Origin: Minisyncoccota bacterium
GTDB lineage: Bacteria; Patescibacteriota; Minisyncoccia; Phycocordibacterales; UBA2100
Reading direction: 5' to 3'
Assembly: GCA_031291875.1 (NCBI GenBank)
Contig: JARLIE010000040.1
Coordinates: forward strand, 132,088 to 196,087
Length of the DNA: 64,000 bases
The position numbers and the translations under genes are program-made. Under the pieces are notes generated by a model. That model saw nothing but the letters and a program-made list of their open reading frames with translations, was not told the origin of the DNA and did not search any database. This document shows positions 5,358-47,391 of the stretch, piece after piece (within the stretch, counting starts at the first letter, position 1; each line of letters begins with the position of its first letter).

Positions 5358-8300
5358 ATGAGTAAAGCATTAGCAACAAAGAAAGTTGCGGCTGCGCTCT
5401 TGGGCTTTGGAATGGTTCTTGCTTTCGCCACCACGGCGAGCGCACAGACCACTTCGTCAGCTTCGACGCTGTCGACGCTCCAAGCACAAGTTCAAGCGCT
5501 TCTCGCGCAAATCGCATCGCTCCAGGGCTCTGGTACATCCACGGGTTCCGGCGGCGCGTGCTTCACCTTCTCGGCGAATGAGCAAGTTGGCTCAAACGGC
5601 GGTCAGGTGATGTGGATCCAGGAGTTCCTCAACGGTCACGGCTTCCAAGTCGCGGCGACAGGTGCTGGTTCTCCGGGCAATGAAACGAGTCACTTTGGTC
5701 CGGCCACTAAGGCTGCGGTCATGAAGTTCCAGAGCTCGAACGGCATCTCGCCGGTCTCGGGTTACTGGGGACCTCTGAGCCGCGCTAAGGCCAATGCCAT
5801 CTGTGCCGGTTCTACGACTGGCACGGGTACAGGCACTGGTACTGGTACTGGCACGACTTCGGGAGCGGGTATCACCGTTACCGCAGGCGTCCAGCCGGCA
5901 AACTCGCTCGCTCCGGTTAACGCAAGCCGCGTTCCGTTCACGACGTTCACGCTATCCAACAACACTGGCAGCGCGGTAACGATCAACGGCATCACGGTTC
6001 AGCGCACGGGCCTCGCGAATGACAACGCCTTCGCTGGTGTTATTCTTCTCGACTCGAACGGTCTCCAATACGGCAACTCACAAACCTTCAACTCGAACCA
6101 CCAGGCGACGGTTGGCGGTACATTCACTCTCAATCCGGGTCAGTCAATGACTTACACGATTGCGGGTAATATGGAAACGATCGCGAACAGTAACTCTGGT
6201 CAGATCGCTTCTGTCTCGGTTGTCGGTGTCAATACTTCGGTTCCGGTCTCTGGCTCGCTCCCGATTACGGGCGCGCAACAGACGATCAACGAGTCGTTGA
6301 CGATTGGTACTGCATCTCTCAGCAACTCCGGTTACGACCCGAACGGTTACCGCTCGAATTCGATCGGTACAACGGGCCTTACGTTCTCCGCCCTCCGCAT
6401 CACTGCTGGATCGGCTGAAGACGAGAAGCTCTACTCGATCACGTGGAACCAGACTGGTTCTGCTGGTTCGCAGGACATTGGCAACCTCAAGACGGTTGTT
6501 AACGGCACGAGCTACCCGGTAACGGTTGACGCTTCTGGTAAATACTTCACTTCGCAATTCGCGGGAGGTATCTTGATCCCGAAGGGTCAGTCTGTTGATG
6601 CGTACATTCAGGGTGACCTCACTGGCTCTACTGCCGCAGGTCGCACTGTAGAGTTCGACGTCTACCGCGCTTCCGACATTTACGTCGTTGGTCAAACGTT
6701 CGGCTACGGCATCACGCCGAGCAGCCCGAACTTGACCGCATGTAGTGCAACTGGCACGATTGGTACGAACTGTCTCGACACTGCGTCGAGTCACGGATCG
6801 CACTACTCGTACAACTCGAACCCGCTCTTCCAGGGCTCGAGCATGTCGATTACAGCCGGTACGTTGTCGACGGTCTCAACTGCGAGCTCCGTTGCTCCGC
6901 AGAATATTGCGATCAATGTCCCGAATCAGATTCTCGGTGGATTCCAGACGAACTTCACTGGTGAACCTGTTACGGTCAACAGCGTCACAGTTAGTGTTGC
7001 GACCAGCTCCACAAACACCGACCAGCTCAAGAGCGTTACCTTGGTTGACTCCAATGGCAATGTTGTTGCTGGCCCGGTTGACGAGAATGTGAGCACTGGG
7101 AAAATCATTTTCAGTAGCTCAGTCACCTTCCCGGTTGGACCGATGACGTACACCATTAAGGGTACGGTTGGTTCCAACGCGGGTAACGGCGGCACCTACA
7201 TCTTGTCGACGAACCCAGGTACTCAGTGGTCGAGCGCTATCGGCCAGACCTCTGGTAACTACGTAACGCTCCCGAGCACGACCATCACCATGAGCACCAT
7301 GACGGTGCAGGCTGGTCAGCTCAACATCTCGGCTTCGGCTTCGCCGGCATCGTCGAACATCACGACGAATACCAACAACTACACGGTTGCGAACATCGTA
7401 CTCGATGCCTCGCAGTCGGGTGAGGACGTTCGCTTGAACGCACTCCCGATCGTTGTTAACGCGACGTCGACTTCGGGTGACCAGACTTCGGCAAACTTGC
7501 TTAAGTCGAATCTCACGAACTGTCAATTGTTCAACGGCAGCAATGCGCTCAACAGCCAATCGGTTGGTTCGAGCCAGTGGACCGTTCAGAACACGTCAGG
7601 CAGCATCTACGGTCTTGAAGCGAACTTCATCTTCACGAACTCGCTTACGGTTCCGAAAGGCACGACTGTTACACTTTCGCTCGTCTGCAACATTGGCGGT
7701 GGTCTCTTCCCTGCAGAAACCTTCAACGCTGGTGTCGCTTCGGGCTTCGCTCCTACAGTTACGGGCGCGACCTCGGGTAACACTCTTAGCGCAACTCCGA
7801 CCACGAGCTCCTCGGGTACGATGACCGTTGGTACGGCAAGCATGACTGCTTCCGTCCCGACCCCGCTCTCGTACGCGCTGGTCTCTGGTGGCACACAGAA
7901 CGTCACAGTTGGAACTTTCACGCTCCAGCCGACGACGGGCAATGTCAGCCTCCAGAACCTCGGACTTGCTCTTAACTCGAATTACGCTTCCAGCTCCGAC
8001 CTCGCCAACGGCGTCGTCACGATCTGGAACGGTTCGACGCAGATTGGTACGGCCAACTTCAGCGGCAAATCGCCGATTGGTCACTACTACATCGCGACGT
8101 CTACGATCACGAACTTCAATCTTCCGCAAAACATCCAGACCACTCTTACCCTCAAGGCGAACATTGCTGCGATTGGTATCGGTCAATCTGGCATGAGCGG
8201 TCATGAACTCAAGATCGGTCTCGCAGAAGCTCAGGGTACATCGGGCAATAGCTCGGTTGATACTGGCTACACCACATCGAACGTACCGTCCAACGGTATC

Positions 8301-18792: not shown

Positions 18793-19137
18793 CCGCAGCA
18801 CATATGGTGTTCGGAATGAGGGCGAAAAGGCGGCAACCGTAATGCGGGGGGAACCCCCACACCAAGGTGGCCGCGAAAGCGGCCTTTTTCACGCTTGAAA
18901 AAGCACGAAATCATATGTTGCTCGTTGAAAACTGAAGAGCGACACAAGAAAGAATCAAACGTTCCGTTTGGGTTATAAGTCTTTCCCGAACGGAATGCAG
19001 GAATCCGCCGTAAGGCGGGCAAAAAGAAAACATCAAGTCGCGTCTTCCTCTTGTAGGGAAGATGCGCAGTTCTCGTGAAAAAGCAGCGGTGTTTTTTCAC
19101 GAGACGTAATACGCGGTTCTCAGAATTCCTAGCGGGA

Positions 19138-22095
<2,958 letters not shown>

Positions 22096-22230
22096 CTCGA
22101 AAGGAATTGTGAGAGTCGCGTTAACGAATTGTTTTCTCTGTTTTGCCGGAATAGTGCACGCACTATTCTGCGCAAATATTTCTTGTGTCGCTCTTCGGTT
22201 TTCAGCGCAGCCGAAGTTCTTTGAATGTTT

Positions 22231-22342
22231 TGTGTTGGTGCTTCATCGGAGGGGTCACACCCGTTCTCTTTCCGAACACGGCAGTTAAGCCCTCTTGAGG
22301 CGATGGTAGTCGAAAGGCGAGAGTAGCTAGGCGCCAACACAA
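22231..22342 (+). rRNA. rrf: 5S ribosomal RNA
   Basis: Helix I pairs tgtgttggtgc with gcgccaacaca. Internal ccgaacacggcagttaagcc...gatggtagtcgaaaggcgagagtagctaggcgcc matches 5S loop C/helix IV-V conservation. Confidence 0.75.
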
Positions 22343-22404
22343 ACTATTCAAAGAATTCTCTCATTCCGTCATTTTATTCGGCAGGCAAACCTGCCGGCGG
22401 GGCA

Positions 22405-22463
22405 GTTAAGCCCTTCTGTGCTGATGGTAGTCGAAAGGCGAGAGTAGCTAGGCGCCGGGAAAA
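22405..22463 (+). repeat. direct duplicate of the 3' ~57 nt of 5S rRNA (5S fragment/pseudogene)
   Basis: gcagttaagccc.tct.gtgctgatggtagtcgaaaggcgagagtagctaggcgcc recurs ~65 nt after the complete 5S. The 5' half of 5S is missing from the second copy. Confidence 0.7.
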
Positions 22464-22465
22464 AG

Positions 22466-22948
22466 CTATTCCTCTGACTCAAGATTTATCTCGAGAGGAA
22501 TTCTGTCTACCTCAGTGAAGCCTTCTTCGCCAGCTTCTTTTATTAGAACTACAATCGTGTACTCCCCGCTATCGTCAACGGGCAAAGGAGAGAACTTACT
22601 TCGTATGCGAATACTTTTAATACCCTTTTGAATCCCAAAATTATTCGGAGGCAACTCTGCGATAGTATTGCCCTTTGGATTTACAAATTCATATTTAATC
22701 TCGAAAGCTACCGGGTCATCTATTTTTTTTGAAAATCGAGATATTATCTCGAATTCGAACGGAAATGCGTAGCCGTTTGCATTCTCGAGTCTTTTTTGTT
22801 CAAGCATTTCTTTGGTAATTTGAACCGTGAATTTCTCGATCAGATTGTTCAGGCTTAGGTTGTTTGTATCCGCACTCAATACTGAAGAGCTGCAGAGTAC
22901 GGAAAAAAGATGCCTGAGGTTTTTTGTACCGATTTCTTTAAAATTCAT
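22466..22948 (-). CDS. hypothetical protein, third gene of the toxin-antitoxin-like operon
   Basis: ATG overlaps the antitoxin stop as ATGA (translational coupling). 160 aa, AT-rich codons, no recognisable motif. Confidence 0.5.
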   Translation of the reverse strand: MNFKEIGTKNLRHLFSVLCSSSVLSADTNNLSLNNLIEKFTVQITKEMLEQKRLENANGYAFPFEFEIISRFSKKIDDPVAFEIKYEFVNPKGNTIAELPPNNFGIQKGIKSIRIRSKFSPLPVDDSGEYTIVVLIKEAGEEGFTEVDRIPLEINLESEE

Positions 22949-23382
22949 ACGCGAATGTAACTGTAACCCGTTATTGTTCCAAGCCTTTCCTTCGGGGACT
23001 CAGTATTTGCATCTGAAGATGCACTTTTGATCGACAGATCGTTTCGTTGAATAAAACTTGGAATCAATTTCTCGGAAACTTCCTGATCATTTATTGCTGT
23101 AAAGAAATTCGGATTTCCAAAACGCACTTCAAGATAGGTTTTAAAATGGTCAGCGATCTTCTTTAGTGTAGTTAAGTTCGGTAACTGAGCTCCGTTTTCC
23201 AATCGAGAAATCCCAGATTGTTTCGTGCCAATTGCTTCAGCGAGTTGCAGTTGTGTAAGATTCCTCTCAACTCTATTTCGTTCTATTTCACGACCTATCT
23301 GATAAGCAAGGTCTTGTTTAATCTCCAAATCAATGTTTGGGTTTTTTTCACGTATCTTAGTTTTGTAGGTCTTTAGGTCCAT
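22945..23382 (-). CDS. higA: XRE-family HTH antitoxin (HigA-like) with ~70-aa C-terminal extension
   Basis: HTH LTQLQLAEAIGTKQSGISRLENGAQLPNLTTLKKIADHF. Start taken at MDLKTY (ATG 23382) inside the 3' end of the toxin gene. The ORF track's upstream start at 23445 would overlap the toxin by 88 nt. Confidence 0.7.
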   Translation of the reverse strand: MDLKTYKTKIREKNPNIDLEIKQDLAYQIGREIERNRVERNLTQLQLAEAIGTKQSGISRLENGAQLPNLTTLKKIADHFKTYLEVRFGNPNFFTAINDQEVSEKLIPSFIQRNDLSIKSASSDANTESPKERLGTITGYSYIRV

Positions 23383-23743
23383 AGTTTTCAGGTATATTCT
23401 TAATTCTCTCTCGAGCAGATTTGATATGCGTTTTTGGAATATCACCGATTTTCTTTTTCACGAACCCATGTACAAGAATAATTTTGTTTCCGCGAAGACA
23501 TCCTATCAATCGGATTTTCTTTCCCTTATGTTCGATACGAAGATATAGGAGTCCATCTTGAGGGAAACGAATTTTCTCTTTTCGGAACAGTTCGTCTAAA
23601 TATCGTCCATCGAAGCCCTCTTCGAGCATTTCAGCAATTTCGAGCGCTGCAATTTCTCCGAGTGAGTCAAGGAATTCAGCTACATGACATCTTCCGCCGC
23701 CCGATTCATCTTCCCAGAACTCAATGCGGACGGTTTGTTCCAT
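23357..23743 (-). CDS. higB: Gp49-like (DUF891) HigB/RelE-superfamily toxin
   Basis: LYLRIEHKGKKIRLIGCLRGNKIILVHGFVKKKIGDIPKTHIKSARERIKNI matches the Gp49/HigB signature (...yRi.y....iillhgF.KKtqktP..ei..A..R...). Gene order toxin then HTH antitoxin is typical of higBA. Confidence 0.7.
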   Translation of the reverse strand: MEQTVRIEFWEDESGGGRCHVAEFLDSLGEIAALEIAEMLEEGFDGRYLDELFRKEKIRFPQDGLLYLRIEHKGKKIRLIGCLRGNKIILVHGFVKKKIGDIPKTHIKSARERIKNIPENYGPKDLQN

Positions 23744-23770
23744 AATCTATTAAATTCGACCATATATATT

Positions 23771-23792
23771 GATATAACATTGATGTTATATC
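23771..23792. promoter_or_regulatory. perfect 10-2-10 palindrome (GATATAACAT tg ATGTTATATC), candidate operator of the higBA-like operon
   Basis: Lies ~30 nt upstream of the toxin start codon in the AT-rich promoter region. Type II TA operons are typically autorepressed at such palindromes. Confidence 0.5.
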
Positions 23793-23857
23793 CAATTATT
23801 AAGACGGTCAAGTGTTTCCAGGCTTACAATGCTCAGTAAGTCGAGTACAATTAAAAA

Positions 23858-24640
23858 ATGACTTGGGCGACTCGTCGACGCATTGCGTACCTCACCGGCG
23901 TTTTCATTTTTTTTGCGATCGTGGTGGGCGGACCACTCGCGTACCATTTTTTGACGATTCCACCGACGTGCCACGACGGCATCCAAAACCAGGGAGAAAC
24001 AGCGATCGATGAGGGCGGTCCCTGCCTGCTTTTGAATCCAGCCGACCTGCAGCCGCAAGGTATTTTGTGGGCGCGAACGTTCCTTGTACGGCAAGGGGTC
24101 GCGGATGCGGTTGCGTACATCGACAACCCGAATCAGAATGCCGCCGTCATGCAAGTTCCGTACGAATTCACCTTGTACGACAGCAAAAACGCGCTCGTCG
24201 CCGACCTCACCGGACAGACCTTCATCATGCCTGGCGGCGTCACACCCGTCTTCGCCGGAAACATCAACGTCGGCAACCGGGTGCCGACATACGCGCAGCT
24301 CAAATTTGGCGCAGCGCTTGTATGGGAGCGAGCGATCGGATTTTCCCAAGGCATCAAAATTTCCAACCTTCAGACGACACAAAGCGCGAATTCTTCGCAA
24401 GTAACAGCGACAGTCACCGACGCATCGGTTTCGGATATTTCAAATATTATTTTCGTTGCGACGGTCTTCGATCCGGGCGGCAACGCGATCGCGACGTCGC
24501 AGACGGCGCTCCAGAAGCTCGCCGCGGGCGCGAGCGACCAGGTCTACTTCACCTGGCCCTCCGCCTTCTCGGCGACCGTTGGCAGTATCGATATTATCCC
24601 GCTTGTTCAACCTGAGCCCGATCCGAGCGCTCAGCAGTAA
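23858..24640 (+). CDS. hypothetical membrane-anchored extracytoplasmic protein
   Basis: N-terminal TM (LTGVFIFFAIVVGGPLAY), then a beta-rich domain. Sits immediately upstream of ftsW. Confidence 0.45.
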   Translation: MTWATRRRIAYLTGVFIFFAIVVGGPLAYHFLTIPPTCHDGIQNQGETAIDEGGPCLLLNPADLQPQGILWARTFLVRQGVADAVAYIDNPNQNAAVMQVPYEFTLYDSKNALVADLTGQTFIMPGGVTPVFAGNINVGNRVPTYAQLKFGAALVWERAIGFSQGIKISNLQTTQSANSSQVTATVTDASVSDISNIIFVATVFDPGGNAIATSQTALQKLAAGASDQVYFTWPSAFSATVGSIDIIPLVQPEPDPSAQQ

Positions 24641-35854: not shown

Positions 35855-36206
35855 TGGCCGACCATCGCTCCTGATGGCCTTTTCTTTGGAATCTTTGCGG
35901 TTCCAAAAGAATCGCTCAAGCATCATCTCGATGCAGAGCCTTTCAACCGAAACGTCGGCGGAGCATGGTTGAACTTTGAAAACTGAATAAAGAAGATTGT
36001 ACGCATCAAGATCGAAGCAATTCGATCGTTGGTAAGTAAACACACAAAAAAACAGTAAGTGGAAGGAAAGTATGGTATCCGAACGGATAGTTCGGATAGC
36101 ACATTCTTTTGTTCCGTCCATCCTAAGAAAGAGTAAGAAACAAATTCTAGAAGCCTCTCGTTGCCGATTCATTCGGCCGACGCTTCGAAGGTAAAATTAC
36201 TTTTAC

Positions 36207-37657
<1,451 letters not shown>

Positions 37658-37938
37658 AAAAATTGACCTTTCTGCCTTTAGTGGTGGATCGAGTCGAGTC
37701 GATTCGTGTGTCTCGATCGAGCACATGAGGGAAATGGCATTCATCCCAAAATGATGCCTGACAACTCGCAAAGACGAGTGTTTGGACGGAACAAAAGAGT
37801 GTAAATCCAAATCCAAGTACTGTGTGTGTTACAAAACAAAATAGGCCGCCCAAAGCGGTCTCTTTTGCGTTGGGCCGAACGATGCTAGGCTGAATGAGGT
37901 CACGCTCTCACCGCATAAGAGGGCAGGAGGGAACGATC

Positions 37939-40624: not shown

Positions 40625-40708
40625 GGGCATGTGGCGGAATTGGTATACGCGTGCGTCTCAGAAGCGCATTCCGAAAGGATTGGGAGTTCGAGTCTCCCCA
40701 TGCCCACC
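40625..40708 (+). tRNA. tRNA-Leu (anticodon CAG), type II with long variable arm
   Basis: Manual fold: acceptor GGGCATG/CATGCCC, 3-bp D-stem GCG/CGC, anticodon stem TGCGT/GCGCA with loop CTCAGAA, variable arm TCC-GAAA-GGA, T-arm GGGAG-TTCGAGT-CTCCC, discriminator A. Confidence 0.6.
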
Positions 40709-40949
40709 GCGGTATGCCGACCAGGCACGTTCTCGAGCCTGGCGCTCATATATTGAGCGTTGTATAGTCTCGCCGGAGTGCTCTTTGTCATCGCAGCGCT
40801 TACCTTCAATCCAAAGCAGTTTGCCGCAGCAGAAAGCGGCTCAAATTTGGGCCTCGCTCTGCTATGGCAAACTCTCACGAACGAGAGAGCCCGCTAGCAA
40901 CGCGACTATTTGTCCGATTAAGGACTGTTTGTCGCAGAGGAGACAACTC

Positions 40950-41519
40950 ATGAACGATTTCACGTTCGATGTTGGGCTCGCCTTCAAGCTCAAGCAAGCA
41001 GCTGTACGTAATGGTATCGAGGATGCCGCTGATATCGACTGGCTGTGCCAGGGGAAAAACCTCGCAGACATACGTCGGGTTCGATTAGGATATGCAGCCA
41101 TTACGATACCGGAGCACTTGATTGACCTCGACACCGATCCGTTCGTTCCCAAAGGTTGGAAGGTCGAGGAACATCGAAAAGGCGGTCACTTCAAATGGGA
41201 CGCCACGAAGGTCGTGTTGTATAGCTCGAAGAGGCAGCGAGATGGCAAGTGGATGACGGGCGACATGCTCCGCGAGGAGCTGAAAGGCAAGAGCGTCTAC
41301 AACGCCAATTTGCTCGACTACCTGCTCAAACATCCACTCCTCATTCCCGAGGAGTGGAAGGGCACGCCCGTCTCTTTCTGGGGAACCGCGTACTGCCACC
41401 CTGACGTCCGCCTCTTCGTTCGCTGCCTCTATTGGTATGGCGACTGGTGGCACTGGCGCTATTGCCCGCTCGACGGCGACTGGGACGGCGCTAATCTTGC
41501 TGCGGTGCACGTAAGTTGA
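40950..41519 (+). CDS. hypothetical protein with Trp/Cys-rich C-terminus, adjacent to tRNA-Leu
   Basis: Start moved to MNDFTF (ATG 40950, SD gaggag 8 nt upstream) because the ORF-track start at 40629 overlaps the tRNA. The C-terminus CHPDVRLFVRCLYWYGDWWHWRYCPLDGDWDG is unusual. Confidence 0.5.
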   Translation: MNDFTFDVGLAFKLKQAAVRNGIEDAADIDWLCQGKNLADIRRVRLGYAAITIPEHLIDLDTDPFVPKGWKVEEHRKGGHFKWDATKVVLYSSKRQRDGKWMTGDMLREELKGKSVYNANLLDYLLKHPLLIPEEWKGTPVSFWGTAYCHPDVRLFVRCLYWYGDWWHWRYCPLDGDWDGANLAAVHVS

Positions 41520-41730: not shown

Positions 41731-42336
41731 ATGAAAGTAGTTTTGGCGACCAGGAATAAAAATAAGATGGATCAGATCCGCGCAGTGTTTGCCGGCGCGG
41801 CTATTGAAATACTCTCGCTCGACGATGTTTCCGTTTCCGGTGCAGCGGTGGAAGACGGCTCCTCGCTTGAGGAAAATGCAACGAAGAAAGTTCGGTACGC
41901 GCATGAGCGACTTACACAGCCGATGTGGGTGATGGCGGACGACACCGGATTTTTTATCGACGCCTTTGGTGGCGAGCCCGGGATCCAAGCCGCGTATTGG
42001 GGAGGCGAACACTTGAGCGCAGAAGAGCGAATGCGCTACGCACTGGAGCGAATGCATGGTGTCACGGATCGCCGGGCGACGTTTCGCACGTGCGTCGCGC
42101 TGGTTTCACCGGAAGGGGAGCTAACGTACTTTTTGGGTGAGCTGAAAGGTACCCTTCTCGAAGAACCACGCGGTACCTTGCTGCCAAGTCTGCCGTTTGG
42201 CGTTATTTTCCTGCCGGAAGGAGAATCGCGATCACTCGATGAATTACGAGTCGAAGAAGAAAGTGTGATCTCGCATCGAGGGAAAGCCTTTCGGCAGGCT
42301 CGGGCCTTTCTGGAGAAAAGAGCAAATACTGCATAA
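41731..42336 (+). CDS. rdgB: non-canonical purine NTP pyrophosphatase (Ham1/RdgB/ITPase family)
   Basis: Start at MKVVLATRNKNKMDQIRAVF. Ham1 signatures (ATxNxxK; MADDTGFFIDAFGGEPGI; SHRGKAF). Confidence 0.8.
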   Translation: MKVVLATRNKNKMDQIRAVFAGAAIEILSLDDVSVSGAAVEDGSSLEENATKKVRYAHERLTQPMWVMADDTGFFIDAFGGEPGIQAAYWGGEHLSAEERMRYALERMHGVTDRRATFRTCVALVSPEGELTYFLGELKGTLLEEPRGTLLPSLPFGVIFLPEGESRSLDELRVEEESVISHRGKAFRQARAFLEKRANTA

Positions 42337-42342
42337 TACATA

Positions 42343-42376
42343 AAAAGGGCACTCGAGTGAGTGCCCTTTTGCTTTG
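42343..42376. terminator. bidirectional rho-independent terminator
   Basis: aaaagggcactc-gagt-gagtgccctttt flanked by A- and T-runs. Confidence 0.75.
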
Positions 42377-42814
42377 TATCTGCGAACTCAGCGGTCGGTC
42401 TTCGCTTTGCGCGTTGCGACCAGGTCCCAGATTTGAACGCCGACGAGCTTGCCGGAACTGTCGTATCCGAGGTCCACGAAATGCCCTTTGCCAGGAACGA
42501 GCGGCTGCCAGCTTATGCTCACATCCTCGATCTGGACGATGGTGCAGTGCAAGGACGGGCATTCCCAGACCTGTGGCTTAAACTCAGGCACTCTGAAAGA
42601 GGGCCACGGCCGCCAGGGCCTTGAGAATAACCGTTCTCGCCAAGAGCGTCTCGGAAGCAGGGCGCCGAAAAAATCGCCGAAAGCCATTTCGCTTGCGACC
42701 TTACTCATTCTTTGATCCTCCAAGGTTCAAAAGTCTTCCAAGATTGAAGCATGTGCCCTTCAAAACGCAACAGGCGGTCATTCGACCGCCTGTTGGAAGG
42801 AGAGTGTGTTACGG

Positions 42815-44560
42815 CTATGCCTCGCAAGCGATGCAAACTTCTGGCTGTCGCAATTCGCCGGAGGCCTTGAGCGATTCTTTTTGCTCGATAACCTTTTTGC
42901 GGGAGAGCTCCTGGGCGGCGTTCATTGAGTGCTGGTAGTAGAGCGCCTTGATTCCGAGCTGCCAGGCCTGCAAGTAGAGCGAGTTGATGTCTTTTGCTGC
43001 AACGCCGTGCGGCACCATAATATTGAGCGACTGGCCCTGGTCGATGAATGCCTGGCGCACCGCAGCTTGCTCGATAACAACTGCCTGGTCGAGTTCGGCA
43101 AAGGTCTTGAAGACGTCCTTCTCGAGATCGGTGAGGAAGTCGAGGTGCTGTACGGAACCGTCGTGATCGCGGATCGAATCCCAAGTTTCAGCGGTGTTCT
43201 TGTCTTTCGATTCCAGCAAATCCTGAAGGAATTGATTCTTGATCGTGACCTTGAGCTTCGCGACGTCTTTCACGTAGCAGTTGCTCCACACCGGCTCGAT
43301 CGATTGCGAAACCTGACCGAGGATGAAGGCGGATGAGGTAGTCGGCGCGATCGCGAGTGTGGTTGTGTTGCGGCGACCATAGCCCTTGAGAACGGCTGGC
43401 TCACCGAATTTCTTCGCGAGCTCTTGCGAAGCGGCGTCGGCCTTCTTGCGCATCGACGAAAAGATTTCTGCGTTGAGTTTACCCGCGTCTTGGCTTTCGA
43501 ACGGAATCATTTTCGACTGCAAAAACGAGTGCCAACCCAAGACTCCAAGACCGACGGCGCGGTGTTCCTTGGCAAAGTTGTATGCGCGTTCCATAAAGTG
43601 GAATGATTCGCGATCTTCCGCCTTGTCGGAGTCGCGCAATTTCTCAAGCTTTTCGCAGAACTCCGTGATGACAGCGTCGAGAAGTTTGACCATCGTTTCA
43701 ACGAGGTCGGTGTCTTTCCAGGCATCGTAGTGCAACACGTTGATGGAGGAAAGGCAGCATACGAACGAGAGACGTTCGTTGGAGGGGAGCATGATCTCGC
43801 TGCAAAGATTGGACGCGACGATCTTCAGGTCTTTGTCTTTGTAGACCTGTGGACGCTGTTCGTTGGCATTATCAACGAACAGAATGTACGGGTAGCCGAG
43901 TTCGCCGCGGCGTTGGATCACCTTGGCCCAGATCGCGCGCTTCTTCTCGTCGCCGTTTTTCATTTCGGTCATCCACTCGTTGGTGACGGTAACGGCGTGC
44001 GTCATCTTTTGGATCGGGTTGCCTTCCGTGCCGATGTCGAGGAATTCCATAATGTCCGGGTGTTCGACAGGGAGGTAGGGAGAGAATGAACCACGACGCA
44101 CCTTGCCTTGGCTGATGACGTCGATGATCGACTCGAAGAGCTGCATGAAGTGAACCGGGCCGGAAGAAGCGCCGCCCGCGCTCACAGCGCCGCCGCGGGC
44201 TCGCAAAGCGCCAAAGTAGCCCGAAGTGCCACCGCCGTACTTACTCATCATGCCAGCCTCGGCCTCGGTGTAGAGAATCCCAGACATGTTGTCGGGGAGG
44301 TAGGAGCCGAAGCAGGAGATAGGAAGGCCTCTTGTGGCCCCAAAATTGGCCCATACTGGCGTCGAAAGCGAGATCCAGCCCTTAGACATGTAGTCGACGA
44401 GTTTGTCGGCATAGCCCTTCTCGCCGAGGATTTCCTCCGCGCGTCTTGCGATGATTTTGATGCGCTCGTCGGGTGTTTGACCCTCCTCGAGGTAGCCACG
44501 CGCAAGGAAGGCGCGAGAGTTTTCATTGAGCCAATACCAAGGTTCGTACGTTTTTCCCAT
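42815..44560 (-). CDS. nrdA: class I ribonucleotide reductase alpha subunit lacking an N-terminal ATP-cone
   Basis: Active-site NLCSEI (Asn-Cys-Glu), a conserved Cys pair, C-terminal radical-transfer YY (KALYYQH) and C-terminal CIACEA redox Cys pair. 581 aa is ~150-180 aa shorter than ATP-cone-bearing NrdA. Confidence 0.85.
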   Translation of the reverse strand: MGKTYEPWYWLNENSRAFLARGYLEEGQTPDERIKIIARRAEEILGEKGYADKLVDYMSKGWISLSTPVWANFGATRGLPISCFGSYLPDNMSGILYTEAEAGMMSKYGGGTSGYFGALRARGGAVSAGGASSGPVHFMQLFESIIDVISQGKVRRGSFSPYLPVEHPDIMEFLDIGTEGNPIQKMTHAVTVTNEWMTEMKNGDEKKRAIWAKVIQRRGELGYPYILFVDNANEQRPQVYKDKDLKIVASNLCSEIMLPSNERLSFVCCLSSINVLHYDAWKDTDLVETMVKLLDAVITEFCEKLEKLRDSDKAEDRESFHFMERAYNFAKEHRAVGLGVLGWHSFLQSKMIPFESQDAGKLNAEIFSSMRKKADAASQELAKKFGEPAVLKGYGRRNTTTLAIAPTTSSAFILGQVSQSIEPVWSNCYVKDVAKLKVTIKNQFLQDLLESKDKNTAETWDSIRDHDGSVQHLDFLTDLEKDVFKTFAELDQAVVIEQAAVRQAFIDQGQSLNIMVPHGVAAKDINSLYLQAWQLGIKALYYQHSMNAAQELSRKKVIEQKESLKASGELRQPEVCIACEA

Positions 44561-44571
44561 ATAACAGATAC

Positions 44572-45876
44572 TTAGAACAGGTCGTCGCCAGTGACGGGCG
44601 CCTGTCGTTTTGAATAATTAATAGAACGCTTATCGAAGAAATCGACGTGTTTGGTCGCGATCACTTCATCGTCAAACCAGCGCGTTGCTTCAACGAGCGC
44701 CGGGTCTATCGTGAATTGCGGTTTGAGACCGACGCGCTCGAGCGAAGCGTTGAAACGGTTTTTAACGAACTCCTTTACGGTAGCAGCCGGAAGGAAGGGG
44801 AGTTCGCCCTCCTCGTAGATCCAATCGATGATCGCACATTCGGCTTCGTATGCCTCTTTGCACATGTCGTAAATAACTTTTTCATTGGCAGCATCGAACC
44901 ACTCCGGGTGCTCGGTGCGAATGATGCGGACAATCTCAGCGCCGAAGAGGCCGTGGATCTGTTCTTCCTTGGAGGTCGCTTCGACCGCGTTCGAGATGCC
45001 CTTGAATAGGTTGCGGTGTTTGTTGAACGACATGATGATCAGGAACTGAGAGAAAAGCGAGACGTGCTCGATGAAGAGCGAGAAAAGCAAAACCGCCTCA
45101 GCGTATTCGCGATCCTCGTTGGCGCGCGAACGCATGATGACTTTCTCGAGATACGAAATACGCTGCGCAAGCGGCTGGATGTTCGGCACGCGCTTAAACT
45201 CTTCGTTGAGTCCGAGAATTTCCAACAAGTGCGAGTAGGCGTCCATATGACGTACTTCAGATTCTGCAAAAGTGAATCCGACGGCGCCCACTTCCGGCTT
45301 GGGGAGACGCTTGTAGATGTCGCCCCAGAATGTTTTTACCGCAACCTCGATCTGCGCGATTGCGAGCATCGTGTTCTTGATCGTGGTGCGCTCCGCGGGA
45401 GTGGCGTTGACGTGGAAGTCGTGTACATCGCGCGTGAAATTAAATTCCGTGTGCAGCCAATACGAGTGGCGGATAGCAGTGACGTATTCGATGAGCTCCG
45501 GATATTCGTACGGCTTTAGGTGCGTGCGCTTTTTGAAGATACGGCGTTCGCGTTCTCGCGCGTGTTCGGCACGATAGATGATGTACGACTTCGCCGCTTC
45601 GAGATAGCCAAGCTCCATGAGCGAGGCTTCGACGAGGTCTTGAACGCCCTCGACGGTCGGGACGCCGTTTTCGCACACTTTCGTTTGCAAATTTGATTCG
45701 CAAATGAGGTGGAGTTTGCTGTAGACGTGTTCGGCAACCTTGTGTGCAGCCTCTCGATCGCCCGTGTGGGTCGCGAGAAATGCTTTGTGGACCGCACTCG
45801 CGATCTTCTCAAGATTGAAAATTTGCGGGGTACCGTCTCGCTTGATGATCGTGGTGATGGGTCCACTGGGAGTCAT
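44572..45876 (-). CDS. nrdB: class I ribonucleotide reductase beta subunit with N-terminal ATP-cone
   Basis: Start at MTPSGPITTIIKRDGTPQIFNLEKIASAVHKAF (ATP-cone VIKRDG..E.F...KI). Then ferritin-like R2 core with ExxH metal-site motifs (e.g. ESEVRHMDAY). The longer ORF-track start would overlap murD and lacks support. Confidence 0.8.
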   Translation of the reverse strand: MTPSGPITTIIKRDGTPQIFNLEKIASAVHKAFLATHTGDREAAHKVAEHVYSKLHLICESNLQTKVCENGVPTVEGVQDLVEASLMELGYLEAAKSYIIYRAEHARERERRIFKKRTHLKPYEYPELIEYVTAIRHSYWLHTEFNFTRDVHDFHVNATPAERTTIKNTMLAIAQIEVAVKTFWGDIYKRLPKPEVGAVGFTFAESEVRHMDAYSHLLEILGLNEEFKRVPNIQPLAQRISYLEKVIMRSRANEDREYAEAVLLFSLFIEHVSLFSQFLIIMSFNKHRNLFKGISNAVEATSKEEQIHGLFGAEIVRIIRTEHPEWFDAANEKVIYDMCKEAYEAECAIIDWIYEEGELPFLPAATVKEFVKNRFNASLERVGLKPQFTIDPALVEATRWFDDEVIATKHVDFFDKRSINYSKRQAPVTGDDLF

Positions 45877-46074
45877 ATATATAGTTGTTAAAAATAATAT
45901 TGGTTGCCGATTTCCGATTAGCTGCGGGTGCTTTCGGACCCATGGGATTTCTCTCCATGGTTTTCGATGCGCGCGCGGGTGTTCGGAAATGCGACTGTCA
46001 TTATCGCTCCGATACGACGACTTCTGGCATTCTCCGAGGTGTGGATAAACCCGCTTTTCGAGTAGAATGAACAA

Positions 46075-47391
46075 ATGCAACACGTTTGCGATCCCTTCAG
46101 ATCGAAACACATCACGATTTTGGGACTAGGTCTACTCGGTCGGGGGGTCGGCGACGCGGAATTCTTTGCGCAGTGCGGTGCGCACGTCGTTGTGACGGAT
46201 AAAAAGAGCGAAACCGATCTTGCGGAGTCGGTCGAGCGACTCAAAAAATTTACGAACATCGAGTTTCATCTCGGCGGACATCGCCCGGAAGATTTTACAA
46301 ACTCTGATCTCGTCATAAAGGCCTCCGGCGTGCCGCTTACTTCTCCCGAAATTGAAATCGCGAAGAAAAACGGCGTGCAGGTCGCGATGTCCACGGCGCT
46401 TTTCGCAAAATCCGCGACGGAGCTTGGCGCAGAAATCGTCGGCGTAACGGGAACGAGAGGGAAGTCGACGACGACGCAAATGATCTACGCTGTTTTACAA
46501 GCGTCCGGTAGAAAAGTTTTGCTCGGGGGCAATGTGCGCGGCATTTCGACGCTCGCACTGTTGCCCGAAGTGACGAACGATACGATTTGCGTGCTCGAGC
46601 TCGACTCCTGGCAGCTGCAAGGCTTCGGCGATCTGCACATTTCTCCCAATGTTTCGGTATTCACCAACCTCATGCCAGATCATCAAAATTATTATCCGAG
46701 CATGGAAGCGTATTTTTTGGACAAGGCGAATATTTTTCGCTATCAACACGAAGGCGACACTTTGCTGATCGGAGCTTCAATACGAGAAAAGGTCGAGGCA
46801 TCGCATCCGAGCATCGCGCCACAAGTTCCGCAACCGCTTCCGGAGGATTGGCAACTGCAAATTCCGGGCGAACACAACCGCATGAACGCGTCGTTCGCTG
46901 TTGCCGCGCTGCGCGCGCTCGGTATCGCGGATGACGAAATTAAAAAAGGCCTCGAATCGTTCGAGGGCGTCGAGGGTCGGCTGCAATTCGTTCGCGAACT
47001 CGACGGCGTAAAAATCTACAACGACAATAACGCGACAACACCCGAGGCCACGATCGCCGCGTTGAAAGCGCTTTCGCACGAGCGCGAGAAAAAAATAATT
47101 CTTATCATGGGTGGCTCGGACAAGCAGCTTGCGATGAACGAGCTCTTGTATGAAATCGCCAAAACGTGCAAGCGGGTGATTTTGCTTGCGGGCACCGGCA
47201 CGGATCGCATCGCGCCGCTCATCGCCGATTACTCGATCTTCGACGATCTCAGCGCTGCCGTGCGGGAGGCACTGAAAAGTTCGCACGCCGGCGACGTCAT
47301 TCTTTTTTCTCCCGCGTTCGCATCGTTCGGCATGTTCAAGAACGAGTACGAGCGCAACGACGAGTTTTTGAAGATCGTGCGCTCCTTATAA
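46075..47391 (+). CDS. murD: UDP-N-acetylmuramoylalanine--D-glutamate ligase
   Basis: N-terminal Rossmann ITILGLGLLGRGV, Mur-ligase P-loop GVTGTRGKSTT, C-terminal Mur ligase domain. Order murD-murC. Confidence 0.85.
   Translation: MQHVCDPFRSKHITILGLGLLGRGVGDAEFFAQCGAHVVVTDKKSETDLAESVERLKKFTNIEFHLGGHRPEDFTNSDLVIKASGVPLTSPEIEIAKKNGVQVAMSTALFAKSATELGAEIVGVTGTRGKSTTTQMIYAVLQASGRKVLLGGNVRGISTLALLPEVTNDTICVLELDSWQLQGFGDLHISPNVSVFTNLMPDHQNYYPSMEAYFLDKANIFRYQHEGDTLLIGASIREKVEASHPSIAPQVPQPLPEDWQLQIPGEHNRMNASFAVAALRALGIADDEIKKGLESFEGVEGRLQFVRELDGVKIYNDNNATTPEATIAALKALSHEREKKIILIMGGSDKQLAMNELLYEIAKTCKRVILLAGTGTDRIAPLIADYSIFDDLSAAVREALKSSHAGDVILFSPAFASFGMFKNEYERNDEFLKIVRSL

Follow-up and report, generated by a model that had tools for sequence, protein, structure and literature searches.

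The cone-on-beta mechanism of class Id ribonucleotide reductases (RNRs) has been biochemically demonstrated for two homologs, those of Leeuwenhoekiella blandensis and Facklamia ignava. The L. blandensis NrdAi/NrdBi enzyme (PDB 5OLK, 6SF4, 6SF5; eLife 2018, PMC5794259) consists of a beta subunit with an ATP-cone, a short linker, an R2 core, and a disordered tail, together with a cone-less alpha. In F. ignava, the beta subunit is a Grx::ATP-cone::NrdBi protein, for which dATP-induced beta4 tetramers and a Mn2(IV,III) cofactor were described (PMC6187632, PMC6754362). NrdBi proteins carry a Glu, not an Asp, as the first metal ligand as well as a strict Trp (L. blandensis W177, F. ignava W246); the Lys subgroup, which includes all characterised class Id enzymes, has a Lys three residues before this Trp that projects to the metal site (PMC6754362). 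Cones on beta are almost exclusively found in beta-alpha operons (PMC9669993). In the class Ia NrdA of Pseudomonas aeruginosa, the cone binds two dATP and pairs via helices alpha3 and alpha4, like the L. blandensis beta cone (PMC5794259), but it is located on the catalytic subunit and gives rise to alpha4 rather than beta4. Other characterised NrdAi/class Id enzymes in the literature are those of Actinobacillus ureae and Flavobacterium johnsoniae.

Identification of a class Id operon carrying its ATP-cone on beta

By its sequence, the nrdB-nrdA pair found in a 64,000-nucleotide stretch of DNA (the window) is a class Id (phylogenetic subclass NrdAi/NrdBi) aerobic RNR operon, with the cone on beta and a cone-less alpha. 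We directly established its domain architecture, its subclass, the conservation of the named functional residues, the beta-then-alpha operon, and its phyletic distribution. The coding features, with the basis of each call in brackets, are as follows.

44572..45876, minus strand: nrdB, ATP-cone::NrdBi radical-generating subunit, 434 aa plus stop (ORF, Pfam, 5OLK match, Foldseek)
45559..45852, minus strand: ATP-cone, NrdB residues 9-106 (PF03477, conserved motif and interface residues, AlphaFold)
45673..45702, minus strand: lineage-specific cone loop C59...C68 (C-x8-C), between cone helix alpha2 and strand beta3 (alignments)
44707..45525, minus strand: ferritin-like R2 core, NrdB residues 118-390 (PF00268; residues mapped onto L. 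blandensis numbering)
44575..44655, minus strand: NrdB C-terminal tail, residues ~408-434, ending ...SINYSKRQAPVTGDDLF (aligned with the disordered 5OLK C-terminus)
42815..44560, minus strand: nrdA, cone-less NrdAi catalytic subunit, 581 aa plus stop (TIGR02510, NF006577, PDB matches)
43796..43810, minus strand: NrdA active-site motif N251-L-C253-S-E255 (N, C, and E invariant in 71 family members)
42824..42835, minus strand: alpha C-terminal redox-shuttle pair C576-I-A-C579, ...EVCIACEA (sequence)

Both ORFs were confirmed at these coordinates on the minus strand, with 11 nt between the nrdB stop and the nrdA start. The same beta-to-alpha gene order was found in 78 of 80 genome loci, and in the remaining two, the contig stops just past nrdB. 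The nrdB start is the ATG at 45876. A longer NrdB (512 aa) starting at a GTG at 46110 was considered and dropped; this ORF is not needed, as the closest homologs (P0001 and P0002, 90-91% identity) are likewise 434 aa long with 100% query coverage, and its added part matches no family.

NrdA possesses the Pfam domains Ribonuc_red_lgN and Ribonuc_red_lgC alone, without PF03477, and was matched by TIGR02510, the NrdE-prime equivalog for cone-less short alphas (732.3 bits, cutoff 602.25), and by NF006577 (707.1 bits, cutoff 620). Its best PDB matches are 6DQX (E 1.5e-203) and 6DQW, which we take to be class Id alpha structures and which have the same minimal cone-less alpha. Invariant in the family are the catalytic N251, C253, and E255, the active-site redox pair C83 and C268, and the radical-transfer dyad Y541-Y542. 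A preliminary description of this DNA, made from the letters and their translations, had proposed an alpha of 581 aa without a cone, with an NLCSE active site and a C-terminal YY and CxxC, and all of these are present. It had also considered that a cone might be hidden in an exon or behind a start further upstream of nrdA. This is ruled out by the 11-nt gap and by a maximal in-frame N-terminal extension of 27 aa across 70 related operons, and PF03477 was found in none of the 120 best alpha homologs.

For NrdB, matches to PF03477 and to PF00268 (Ribonuc_red_sm; E 6.3e-58, residues 118-390) bear out the proposed fusion of an N-terminal ATP-cone to an R2 core. The metal ligands E177, E207, H210, E270, E305, and H308, as well as Y214, are complete and invariant in 73 relatives. 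The most N-terminal ligand is a Glu (E177, aligned with L. blandensis E170, and invariant), while the class Id Trp, W184, and the Lys-subgroup residue three residues upstream, K181, are invariant in the same relatives; all the NrdBi/class Id signature residues were found when the metal-site subclass was checked by alignment. Residues 6-434 of NrdB aligned with L. blandensis 5OLK (E 6e-165), and 5OLK was also the first hit when the AlphaFold model of NrdB was searched with Foldseek (400 aligned columns, 58% identity). The NrdAi/NrdBi-type assignment of the preliminary description is thus upheld by full-length homology to the characterised L. blandensis enzyme. The NrdB tail, with a pLDDT below 50 and a mean pairwise identity of 87% in the family, is presumed to be the alpha-binding and radical-transfer tail.

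The layout of the window enzyme is identical to that of L. blandensis. The two betas are 58-65% identical and share the metal ligands, the K/W/Y signatures, and the cone-cone interface residues (bar A84), and the alpha C-terminal Cys pair is common to both. They differ in host, a Patescibacteria bacterium versus a marine flavobacterium, and in a 6-residue insertion in the window cone that is flanked by two conserved Cys and is absent from L. blandensis. The cone on beta and the NrdBi Lys subgroup are also common to F. ignava, but window NrdB does not have the glutaredoxin domain of that protein; apart from the two loop cysteines of the cone it has no extra ones, and these two do not form a CxxC redoxin motif. 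The class Id betas of F. johnsoniae (6CWO-6CWQ, 8DQ4, 8DQ5) and Aggregatibacter actinomycetemcomitans (8DQ3) belong to the same subclass, with a core 43-55% identical to that of the window. Unlike window NrdB, these solved betas are core-only (~265-308 residues) and have no cone. To our knowledge, the class Id enzymes of these two species have no cone-based overall activity regulation.

The NrdB cone as a predicted overall-activity switch

The first ~80 aa of NrdB score well as an ATP-cone: PF03477 matched residues 9-106 with 64.7 bits (cutoff 25.8; E 1.2e-17), covering profile positions 2-87 of 88. The peptide quoted in the preliminary description, ITTIIKRDGTPQIFNLEKIASAVHKAF, corresponds to residues 7-33 of the 434-aa NrdB. 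In the nucleotide-binding beta-hairpin motif (K-R-D-G...F...K), residues K12, R13, D14, G15, F20, and K24 are each at least 95% conserved in 73 relatives. The columns of the cone-cone interface were taken from L. blandensis 5OLK (D73, E76/D77, M80, K89, I92, I93, R95), and the corresponding D80, E83, M87, K96, I99, I100, and R102 are predominant or invariant across the family; the single mismatch is A84, the equivalent of L. blandensis D77. The interface residues of the P. aeruginosa NrdA cone are conserved in the window as well. Over most of the domain, the AlphaFold block has a pLDDT of ~82-92. No second cone was found in the window, as a cone HMM built from the family detected the nrdB cone alone in the six-frame translation.

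Regulation through beta oligomerisation, already put forward in the preliminary description, is the best-supported mechanism because the named 5OLK cone-cone interface residues are conserved. Most likely, the window enzyme follows the L. blandensis-type mechanism, in which dATP leads to inactive beta tetramers and ATP to active alpha2beta2 with a Mn2(IV,III) cofactor. The host is a member of the Patescibacteria (Paceibacteria/Kaiserbacteria-like) in which the overall-activity switch would be placed on the N-terminus of beta, next to a minimal alpha without a switch. With ATP in the cone, beta would remain dimeric and form active alpha2beta2, by homology with L. blandensis and F. ignava. With dATP, the cones of two beta dimers would pair via helices alpha3 and alpha4 into a beta4 able to bind alpha only as non-productive alpha2beta4 or alpha4beta4. 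The oxidant would be a Mn2(IV,III) centre assembled with superoxide, Y214 being kept but probably not as the radical site, and the alpha C-terminal CIAC pair would re-reduce the active-site disulfide of alpha after each turnover. For the window RNR, we infer nucleotide binding, tetramerisation, and the metal and its oxidation state by analogy. Taken as a whole, this class Id cone-on-beta switch is an explanation in which we have considerable confidence. What speaks against it is that the window cone is 42% identical to the L. blandensis cone and that the insertion before alpha3 could alter nucleotide discrimination or oligomerisation. The stoichiometry already differs between the F. ignava and L. 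blandensis homologs (one ATP versus two).

Could the cone instead be a remnant that no longer regulates, as with the truncated or inactive cones that certain other RNRs carry? Degenerate cones are known from the literature, and the cone evolves faster than the core, with a mean pairwise identity in the family of 60% versus 76%. However, the HMM score lies far above the cutoff, and conservation reaches 95% or more at 25 cone positions, among which are the KRDG motif and the interface residues. The domain is also kept in 240 of 240 related loci (the best 80 each from genome, viral, and metagenome collections), and in nearly all of these the match begins no later than about query residue 10. We therefore regard a remnant as very improbable. 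An artefactual cone-R2 fusion, whether from gene calling that joined two adjacent genes or from misassembly of the contig, deserves almost no credence: nothing in support of it was found, hundreds of assemblies made independently from varied sources contain the same unbroken cone and R2 ORF, and a full-length homolog has a solved structure (5OLK).

A cysteine pair in the cone loop and loss of the alpha C-terminal pair

The Cys pair of the cone loop and the associated loss of the alpha tail are a new observation. Cysteines occupy the two loop positions in 63-64 of 73 family sequences and in 114 of 120 homologs from the database; in alignment A3, neither column varies. Sister-clade operons, represented by those of Kaiserbacteria RIFCSPHIGHO2_01_FULL_46_22 (L008) and Nomurabacteria CP060229.1 (L047), share with the window the operon, the cone on beta, and the cone Cys pair (62-66% identity in beta and 68-75% in alpha). 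They differ in a longer C-x17-C loop and in alphas that mostly do not have the C-terminal Cys pair; the subclade of the window has kept the pair, and most of the sister clade has lost it.

Analysis of 198 operons for the two pairs gave 112 with the alpha pair alone, 77 with the cone pair alone, and 9 with both, including the window operon. The alpha pair was lost solely where the cone pair is present (77/86 versus 0/112). One apparent operon with neither pair, L088, was discarded as an exception, as its nrdA is interrupted by ~1 kb with an endonuclease-like ORF and the tail region lies downstream. This ORF looks HNH-like by sequence. A compensating Cys in the tail-less alphas (GGGTS to GGGCS) was also considered and rejected; it is present in 42/56 of the genome set and is not a general explanation, as it occurs in 3/81 of the database set.

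It is reasonably plausible, though short of probable, that the cone pair is purely structural (a disulfide staple or metal site) or a redox sensor of the switch, and that the loss of the alpha tail is offset by an unrelated factor, such as a redoxin reducing the active site directly. In the AlphaFold models, the loop block comes out as ordered, at fair confidence (pLDDT 73 in the short form, 80-88 in the long form), its sequence is fairly conserved (MCVQAGTA...KC[VI]DG), and the insertion with its two Cys directly precedes helix alpha3, adjoining the interface helices, and could thus tune oligomerisation. This reading leaves unexplained why tail loss is confined to lineages with the cone pair. 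Structural disulfides are, moreover, unusual in cytoplasmic proteins, and a search of the window and ~955 kb of flanks found no Trx, Grx, or NrdH gene linked to the operon, so no alternative reductant was identified.

More tentatively, the cone pair (C59/C68 here; C-x17-C in the sister clade) may be a redox dithiol on a flexibly tethered beta that helps to re-reduce alpha or relays electrons from a redoxin, the alpha pair then becoming dispensable. Not one of the 198 operons is devoid of both pairs once the insertion in L088 is taken into account. The tail-less alphas are truly terminated by their stop codons, and none of the frames over the following 450 nt encodes a tail. Tail loss was repeated, with 4 events by Fitch parsimony, or 6 if it is irreversible, all nested within cone-pair clades. 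The cysteines are retained throughout despite a loop length that varies from 8 to 17 residues, the literature has the C-terminal Cys pair in all or almost all class I alphas, and the glutaredoxin domain of F. ignava provides an earlier case in which the N-terminus of NrdB carries a redox-active dithiol module. Against this, the correlation depends on one or two gains of the pair; therefore, any other trait of the clade could permit tail loss. The pair is also anchored in a helix and a strand and is thus less mobile than a disordered tail, its reach to the alpha active site is putative, and the extra Cys in the GGGTS motif of many tail-less alphas of the genome set, though rare in the database set, offers another account. 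As the window alpha retains its own tail, nothing here requires the cone pair.

Were the dithiol reading to hold, the cone of Patescibacteria class Id enzymes would have a second job, re-reducing alpha and thereby permitting repeated tail loss, and the window, with its short C-x8-C and intact tail, would be an intermediate; we view this as possible rather than likely. A redox role of the cone pair is compatible with the cone-on-beta switch and does not exclude it.

Flanking region and regulation

Upstream of nrdB lies the following region.

45877..46074, minus strand: nrdB leader and divergent intergenic region shared with murD (hairpin CCATGG-N7-CCATGG at 45940-45960)

There is no case for a function of the hairpin, as it is conserved only with a relative of 90% identity (L082) and not with one of 80% identity. 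No NrdR box (acaCwAtATaTwGtgt, up to 4 mismatches) was found in the window leader, and no NrdR gene in the window. With the same threshold, boxes were found in 9/72 loci versus ~5% of shuffled sequences. Good boxes were restricted to L063, L074, and L077; the last two were also the only loci with an NrdR-like gene. A search of 42300-46200 with Rfam detected no known RNA or riboswitch; STnc320 matched the terminator-like hairpin, but below threshold. Promoter and terminator scans gave background levels.

No accessory gene for an NrdI-like activase, Trx, Grx, or NrdH is linked to the operon, and no gene with a Trx/Grx motif was found in the window. In the sister clade, the operon is repeatedly accompanied by genes for MscL, YibE/F, an M10-like peptidase, SIMPL, and a NusG-like protein (so named from its sequence); none of them flanks the window operon. 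Downstream of nrdA, the ORF at 42388-42723 is probably not a gene, as it has no Pfam match and no conservation.

Distribution and implications

A 2018 paper counted 93 RefSeq sequences spread over viruses and several phyla and observed that all species with a cone-NrdB also encode another RNR (PMC5794259). We found relatives in 478 species-level genomes, the best 80 of which are nearly all from the ultra-small Patescibacteria (CPR), as well as in at least 562 viral contigs and at least 590 metagenome contigs. The description of this arrangement as rare and limited to a few Bacteroidetes is therefore outdated. That the window extends its distribution is true relative to what papers discuss, no link between CPR and a class Id cone-on-beta RNR having been found in the literature searched, but not relative to databases, where relatives abound. 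Neither the 64-kb window nor ~955 kb of flanks yielded a second RNR.

The window operon is an added example of an already characterised RNR design and leaves the knowledge of RNR regulation unchanged. The beta-borne ATP-cone, which published work presents as a minority trait found in Flavobacteriia, is actually standard in a large clade of Patescibacteria and in many viral contigs. An O2- and superoxide-dependent Mn RNR, apparently without NrdR control, would be at work in organisms that have long been considered anaerobic, fermentative, and minimal in their nucleotide metabolism. Tail-less class I alphas, always found alongside the Cys pair of the beta cone, are an exception to the textbook rule. 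If the cone pair does act as a redox dithiol, the rule that every class I RNR carries the alpha C-terminal pair would need revision, and electron delivery would have been partly moved to the radical-generating subunit.

Architecture and subclass of the reductase

The nrdB and nrdA genes, separated by 11 nt, encode the small (beta) and large (alpha) subunits of a class Id ribonucleotide reductase (RNR).

44572-45876, minus strand: nrdB, ORF of 434 aa
NrdB residues 9-106: ATP-cone (Pfam PF03477, 64.7 bits against a cutoff of 25.8, E = 1.2e-17)
NrdB residues 118-390: Ribonuc_red_sm domain (Pfam), C-terminal to the cone
45673-45702, within nrdB: lineage-specific cone insertion, C59 to C68, between helix alpha2 and strand beta3 (alignment)
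42815-44560, minus strand: nrdA, ORF of 581 aa
41659-42336, plus strand: Ham1/RdgB-type non-canonical NTP pyrophosphatase (PF01725, E = 4e-44), convergent with nrdA

The preliminary description had placed a cone at the N-terminus of beta and none on alpha, and this arrangement was confirmed. The beta cone passes the Pfam model, only all-alpha and barrel domains were detected by Pfam in NrdA, and PF03477 is absent from all of the 120 top-ranking alpha homologs. A hidden cone would not fit 5' of nrdA, as in-frame extensions in 70 related operons reach 27 aa at most, and a family-derived cone HMM matched only nrdB in a six-frame translation of the whole window. The nrdB start codon first proposed was also retained, because the nearest database homologs (90-91% identity) are 434 aa long with full coverage; the stretch added by a longer ORF start, which was rejected, contains nothing recognizable by Pfam.

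The NrdAi/NrdBi identity suggested earlier holds as well. NrdB aligns over residues 6-434 with the ATP-cone NrdB of Leeuwenhoekiella blandensis (PDB 5OLK, E = 6e-165), which is also the top structural match of its AlphaFold model (400 aligned columns, 58% identity). That model has a mean pLDDT of 75.7, with most cone blocks at 82-92. NrdA scores 732 bits with the curated equivalog TIGR02510, above its cutoff of 602, and its best matches are 6DQX and 6DQW. We take these two structures to be class Id alphas from Actinobacillus ureae and Flavobacterium johnsoniae; characterized NrdAi enzymes of both species are named in the literature. NrdBi proteins have a Glu as first ligand and a Trp that is strictly conserved; the characterized subgroup adds a Lys three residues before this Trp (PMC6754362). 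All of the window counterparts (E177, W184 and K181) are invariant across 73 relatives, and so are the other ligands E207, H210, E270, E305 and H308, plus Y214. Invariant residues of NrdA are C83, N251, C253, E255, C268 and Y541-Y542, and the protein ends in CIACEA.

Predicted dATP/ATP switch

In L. blandensis, dATP, bound two per cone, pairs the cones of two beta dimers via helices alpha3 and alpha4; the beta4 tetramer binds alpha only non-productively, and ATP favors beta2 and active alpha2beta2 (PMC5794259). The Facklamia ignava enzyme behaves in the same way (PMC6187632, PMC6754362). The 5OLK cone-cone interface residues D73, E76, M80, K89, I92, I93 and R95 (PMC5794259) correspond to D80, E83, M87, K96, I99, I100 and R102 of the window protein. 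Five of these are invariant in the family, K96 (K/R) and I100 (I/L) vary only conservatively, and the KRDG/F20 hairpin of the cone is invariant. This conservation argues that the window enzyme most likely shares this switch and uses a Mn2(IV,III) cofactor: dATP in the cones would pair two beta dimers through alpha3/alpha4, giving a beta4 that would bind alpha non-productively, and ATP would maintain beta2 and active alpha2beta2. With the interface residues kept, regulation through beta oligomerization, as initially put forward, appears to be the correct mechanism.

Upstream control

No NrdR box was found 5' of the operon in the window, and most relatives lack one. NrdR-box-like sites precede nrdB in contigs L063 and L077 (two each, 32 nt apart) and L074 (one), and an NrdR-like gene (E about 1e-42) adjoins the operon only in L074 and L077. 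None of these few loci is labeled Patescibacteria; the labels of L063, L074 and L077 are Gammaproteobacteria, Woesearchaeota and Methanosarcinales, and the archaeal ones may be binning errors. The nrdB leader has no Rfam match either, and the cone is thus the sole nucleotide-sensing element identified. The leader contains a hairpin or palindrome (CCATGG-N7-CCATGG, 45940-45960), which is kept in relative L082 (90% identity) with changes in the loop only and is missing in relative L081 (80%).

Genomic neighborhood

The Ham1/RdgB gene adjoins nrdA, which places a dNTP-pool sanitizing enzyme beside a dNTP-producing one; it was not found at the equivalent place in sister-clade loci. The approximately 480 nt 3' of nrdA (42337-42814) are without a recognizable gene, the ORF at 42388-42723 having no Pfam match and no conservation, and include a bidirectional terminator-like hairpin with a perfect 12-bp stem (42343-42370). 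Eleven sister-clade loci encode a small PNPOx-like FMN-binding protein (PF01243, E = 1e-10; L036 9201-9728), with its gene about 55 nt 3' of nrdA. This flavoprotein, missing from the window, might be a candidate for supplying superoxide to class Id cofactor assembly. In two MAG contigs (L015 and L059), nrdA is apparently frameshifted and occupies two reading frames.

Elsewhere in the window, the rRNA genes are unlinked, as is common in the host's group, and unusual in order: the 23S and 5S genes (19133-22339) come first, followed by about 14 kb of protein genes and then, on the same strand, the 16S gene (36202-37661). GC content falls to 42.7% in the 2 kb following the 5S gene (22001-24000), compared with about 54% elsewhere. 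The segment 49806-53345 encodes a VirD4/TraG-like type IV coupling protein (622 aa) and, after it, an LTD and PKD domain protein (526 aa), and this pair is also found near the operon in L081. An ORF at 40629-41519 (296 aa, no Pfam match) overlaps a tRNA (40625-40706), so its true start, if it is a gene, lies further downstream.

Distribution

In the closest relatives, as in the window, nrdB-nrdA is flanked by divergent murC and murD genes, with a member of the murA family further downstream. Named homologs belong to Candidatus Kaiserbacteria, Campbellbacteria, Nomurabacteria and Paceibacterota. A search using patterns specific to the window query found relatives encoded in 478 species-level genomes; among the best 80, all have the cone and 78 have alpha directly downstream. 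Relatives are also present on at least 562 viral and at least 590 metagenome contigs. The 2018 survey listed 93 RefSeq sequences, mainly from Flavobacteriales, and did not mention CPR (PMC5794259); we found no link between CPR and beta-cone class Id RNR in the papers searched. The operon therefore belongs to an already known RNR type whose published distribution is out of date, and the rarity attributed to it in the preliminary description was overstated, although identity and mechanism stood.

Cone cysteine pair and loss of the alpha tail

The cones of Patescibacteria proteins differ from that of L. blandensis by the insertion, which is flanked by two near-invariant cysteines (both columns invariant in alignment A3). 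Their spacing is C-x8-C in the window subclade and C-x17-C in the larger sister clade, and none of the 78 viral copies scored has the insertion. In AlphaFold models (block pLDDT 73-88), helix alpha2 is extended and contains the first Cys, and the second lies within a short strand.

A C-terminal redox Cys pair is described in the literature as a universal, or nearly universal, feature of class I alphas. Most sister-clade alphas (e.g., Kaiserbacteria L008, Nomurabacteria L047, L003, L005 and 70+ further loci; database proteins P0149-P0240) run against this statement, ending in ...RQKLQK instead of ...RQKICxACEA; their stop codons are genuine, and no tail was found downstream in any frame. We scored both pairs in 198 operons, drawn from genomes as well as from metagenome and viral contigs.

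Cone and alpha Cys pairs in 198 operons
Cone pair absent, alpha pair present: 112
Cone pair present, alpha pair absent: 77
Cone pair present, alpha pair present: 9 (window included)
Cone pair absent, alpha pair absent: 0

Tail loss thus affects 77 of the 86 operons with a cone pair and none of the 112 without. The sole apparent exception, L088, has a viral nrdA interrupted at its GRRNTT motif. The intervening stretch of about 1 kb (5994-7006) encodes a putative HNH-like endonuclease (ORF of 244 aa), and the alpha alignment resumes after it; this is probably a group I intron or a similar mobile insertion. A neighbor-joining tree from which the insertion and tail columns were omitted gives two state changes of the cone pair, and on it the tail is lost four times by Fitch parsimony (or in six separate all-tail-less clades if loss is irreversible), always within cone-pair clades. 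This pattern is compatible with tail loss having been permitted by the cone pair.

One possible explanation, which we consider rather doubtful, is that the cone cysteines act as a redox shuttle. This would account for tail loss being nested in cone-pair clades, and a precedent for a reductant on beta exists in F. ignava, whose NrdB has a fused Grx domain. However, an anchored Cys pair suits a shuttle role less obviously than a disordered tail does, and since the association reflects only one or two Cys-pair gains, another trait of the cone-pair clade could be responsible. The question has no bearing on the window enzyme, whose alpha tail is retained.
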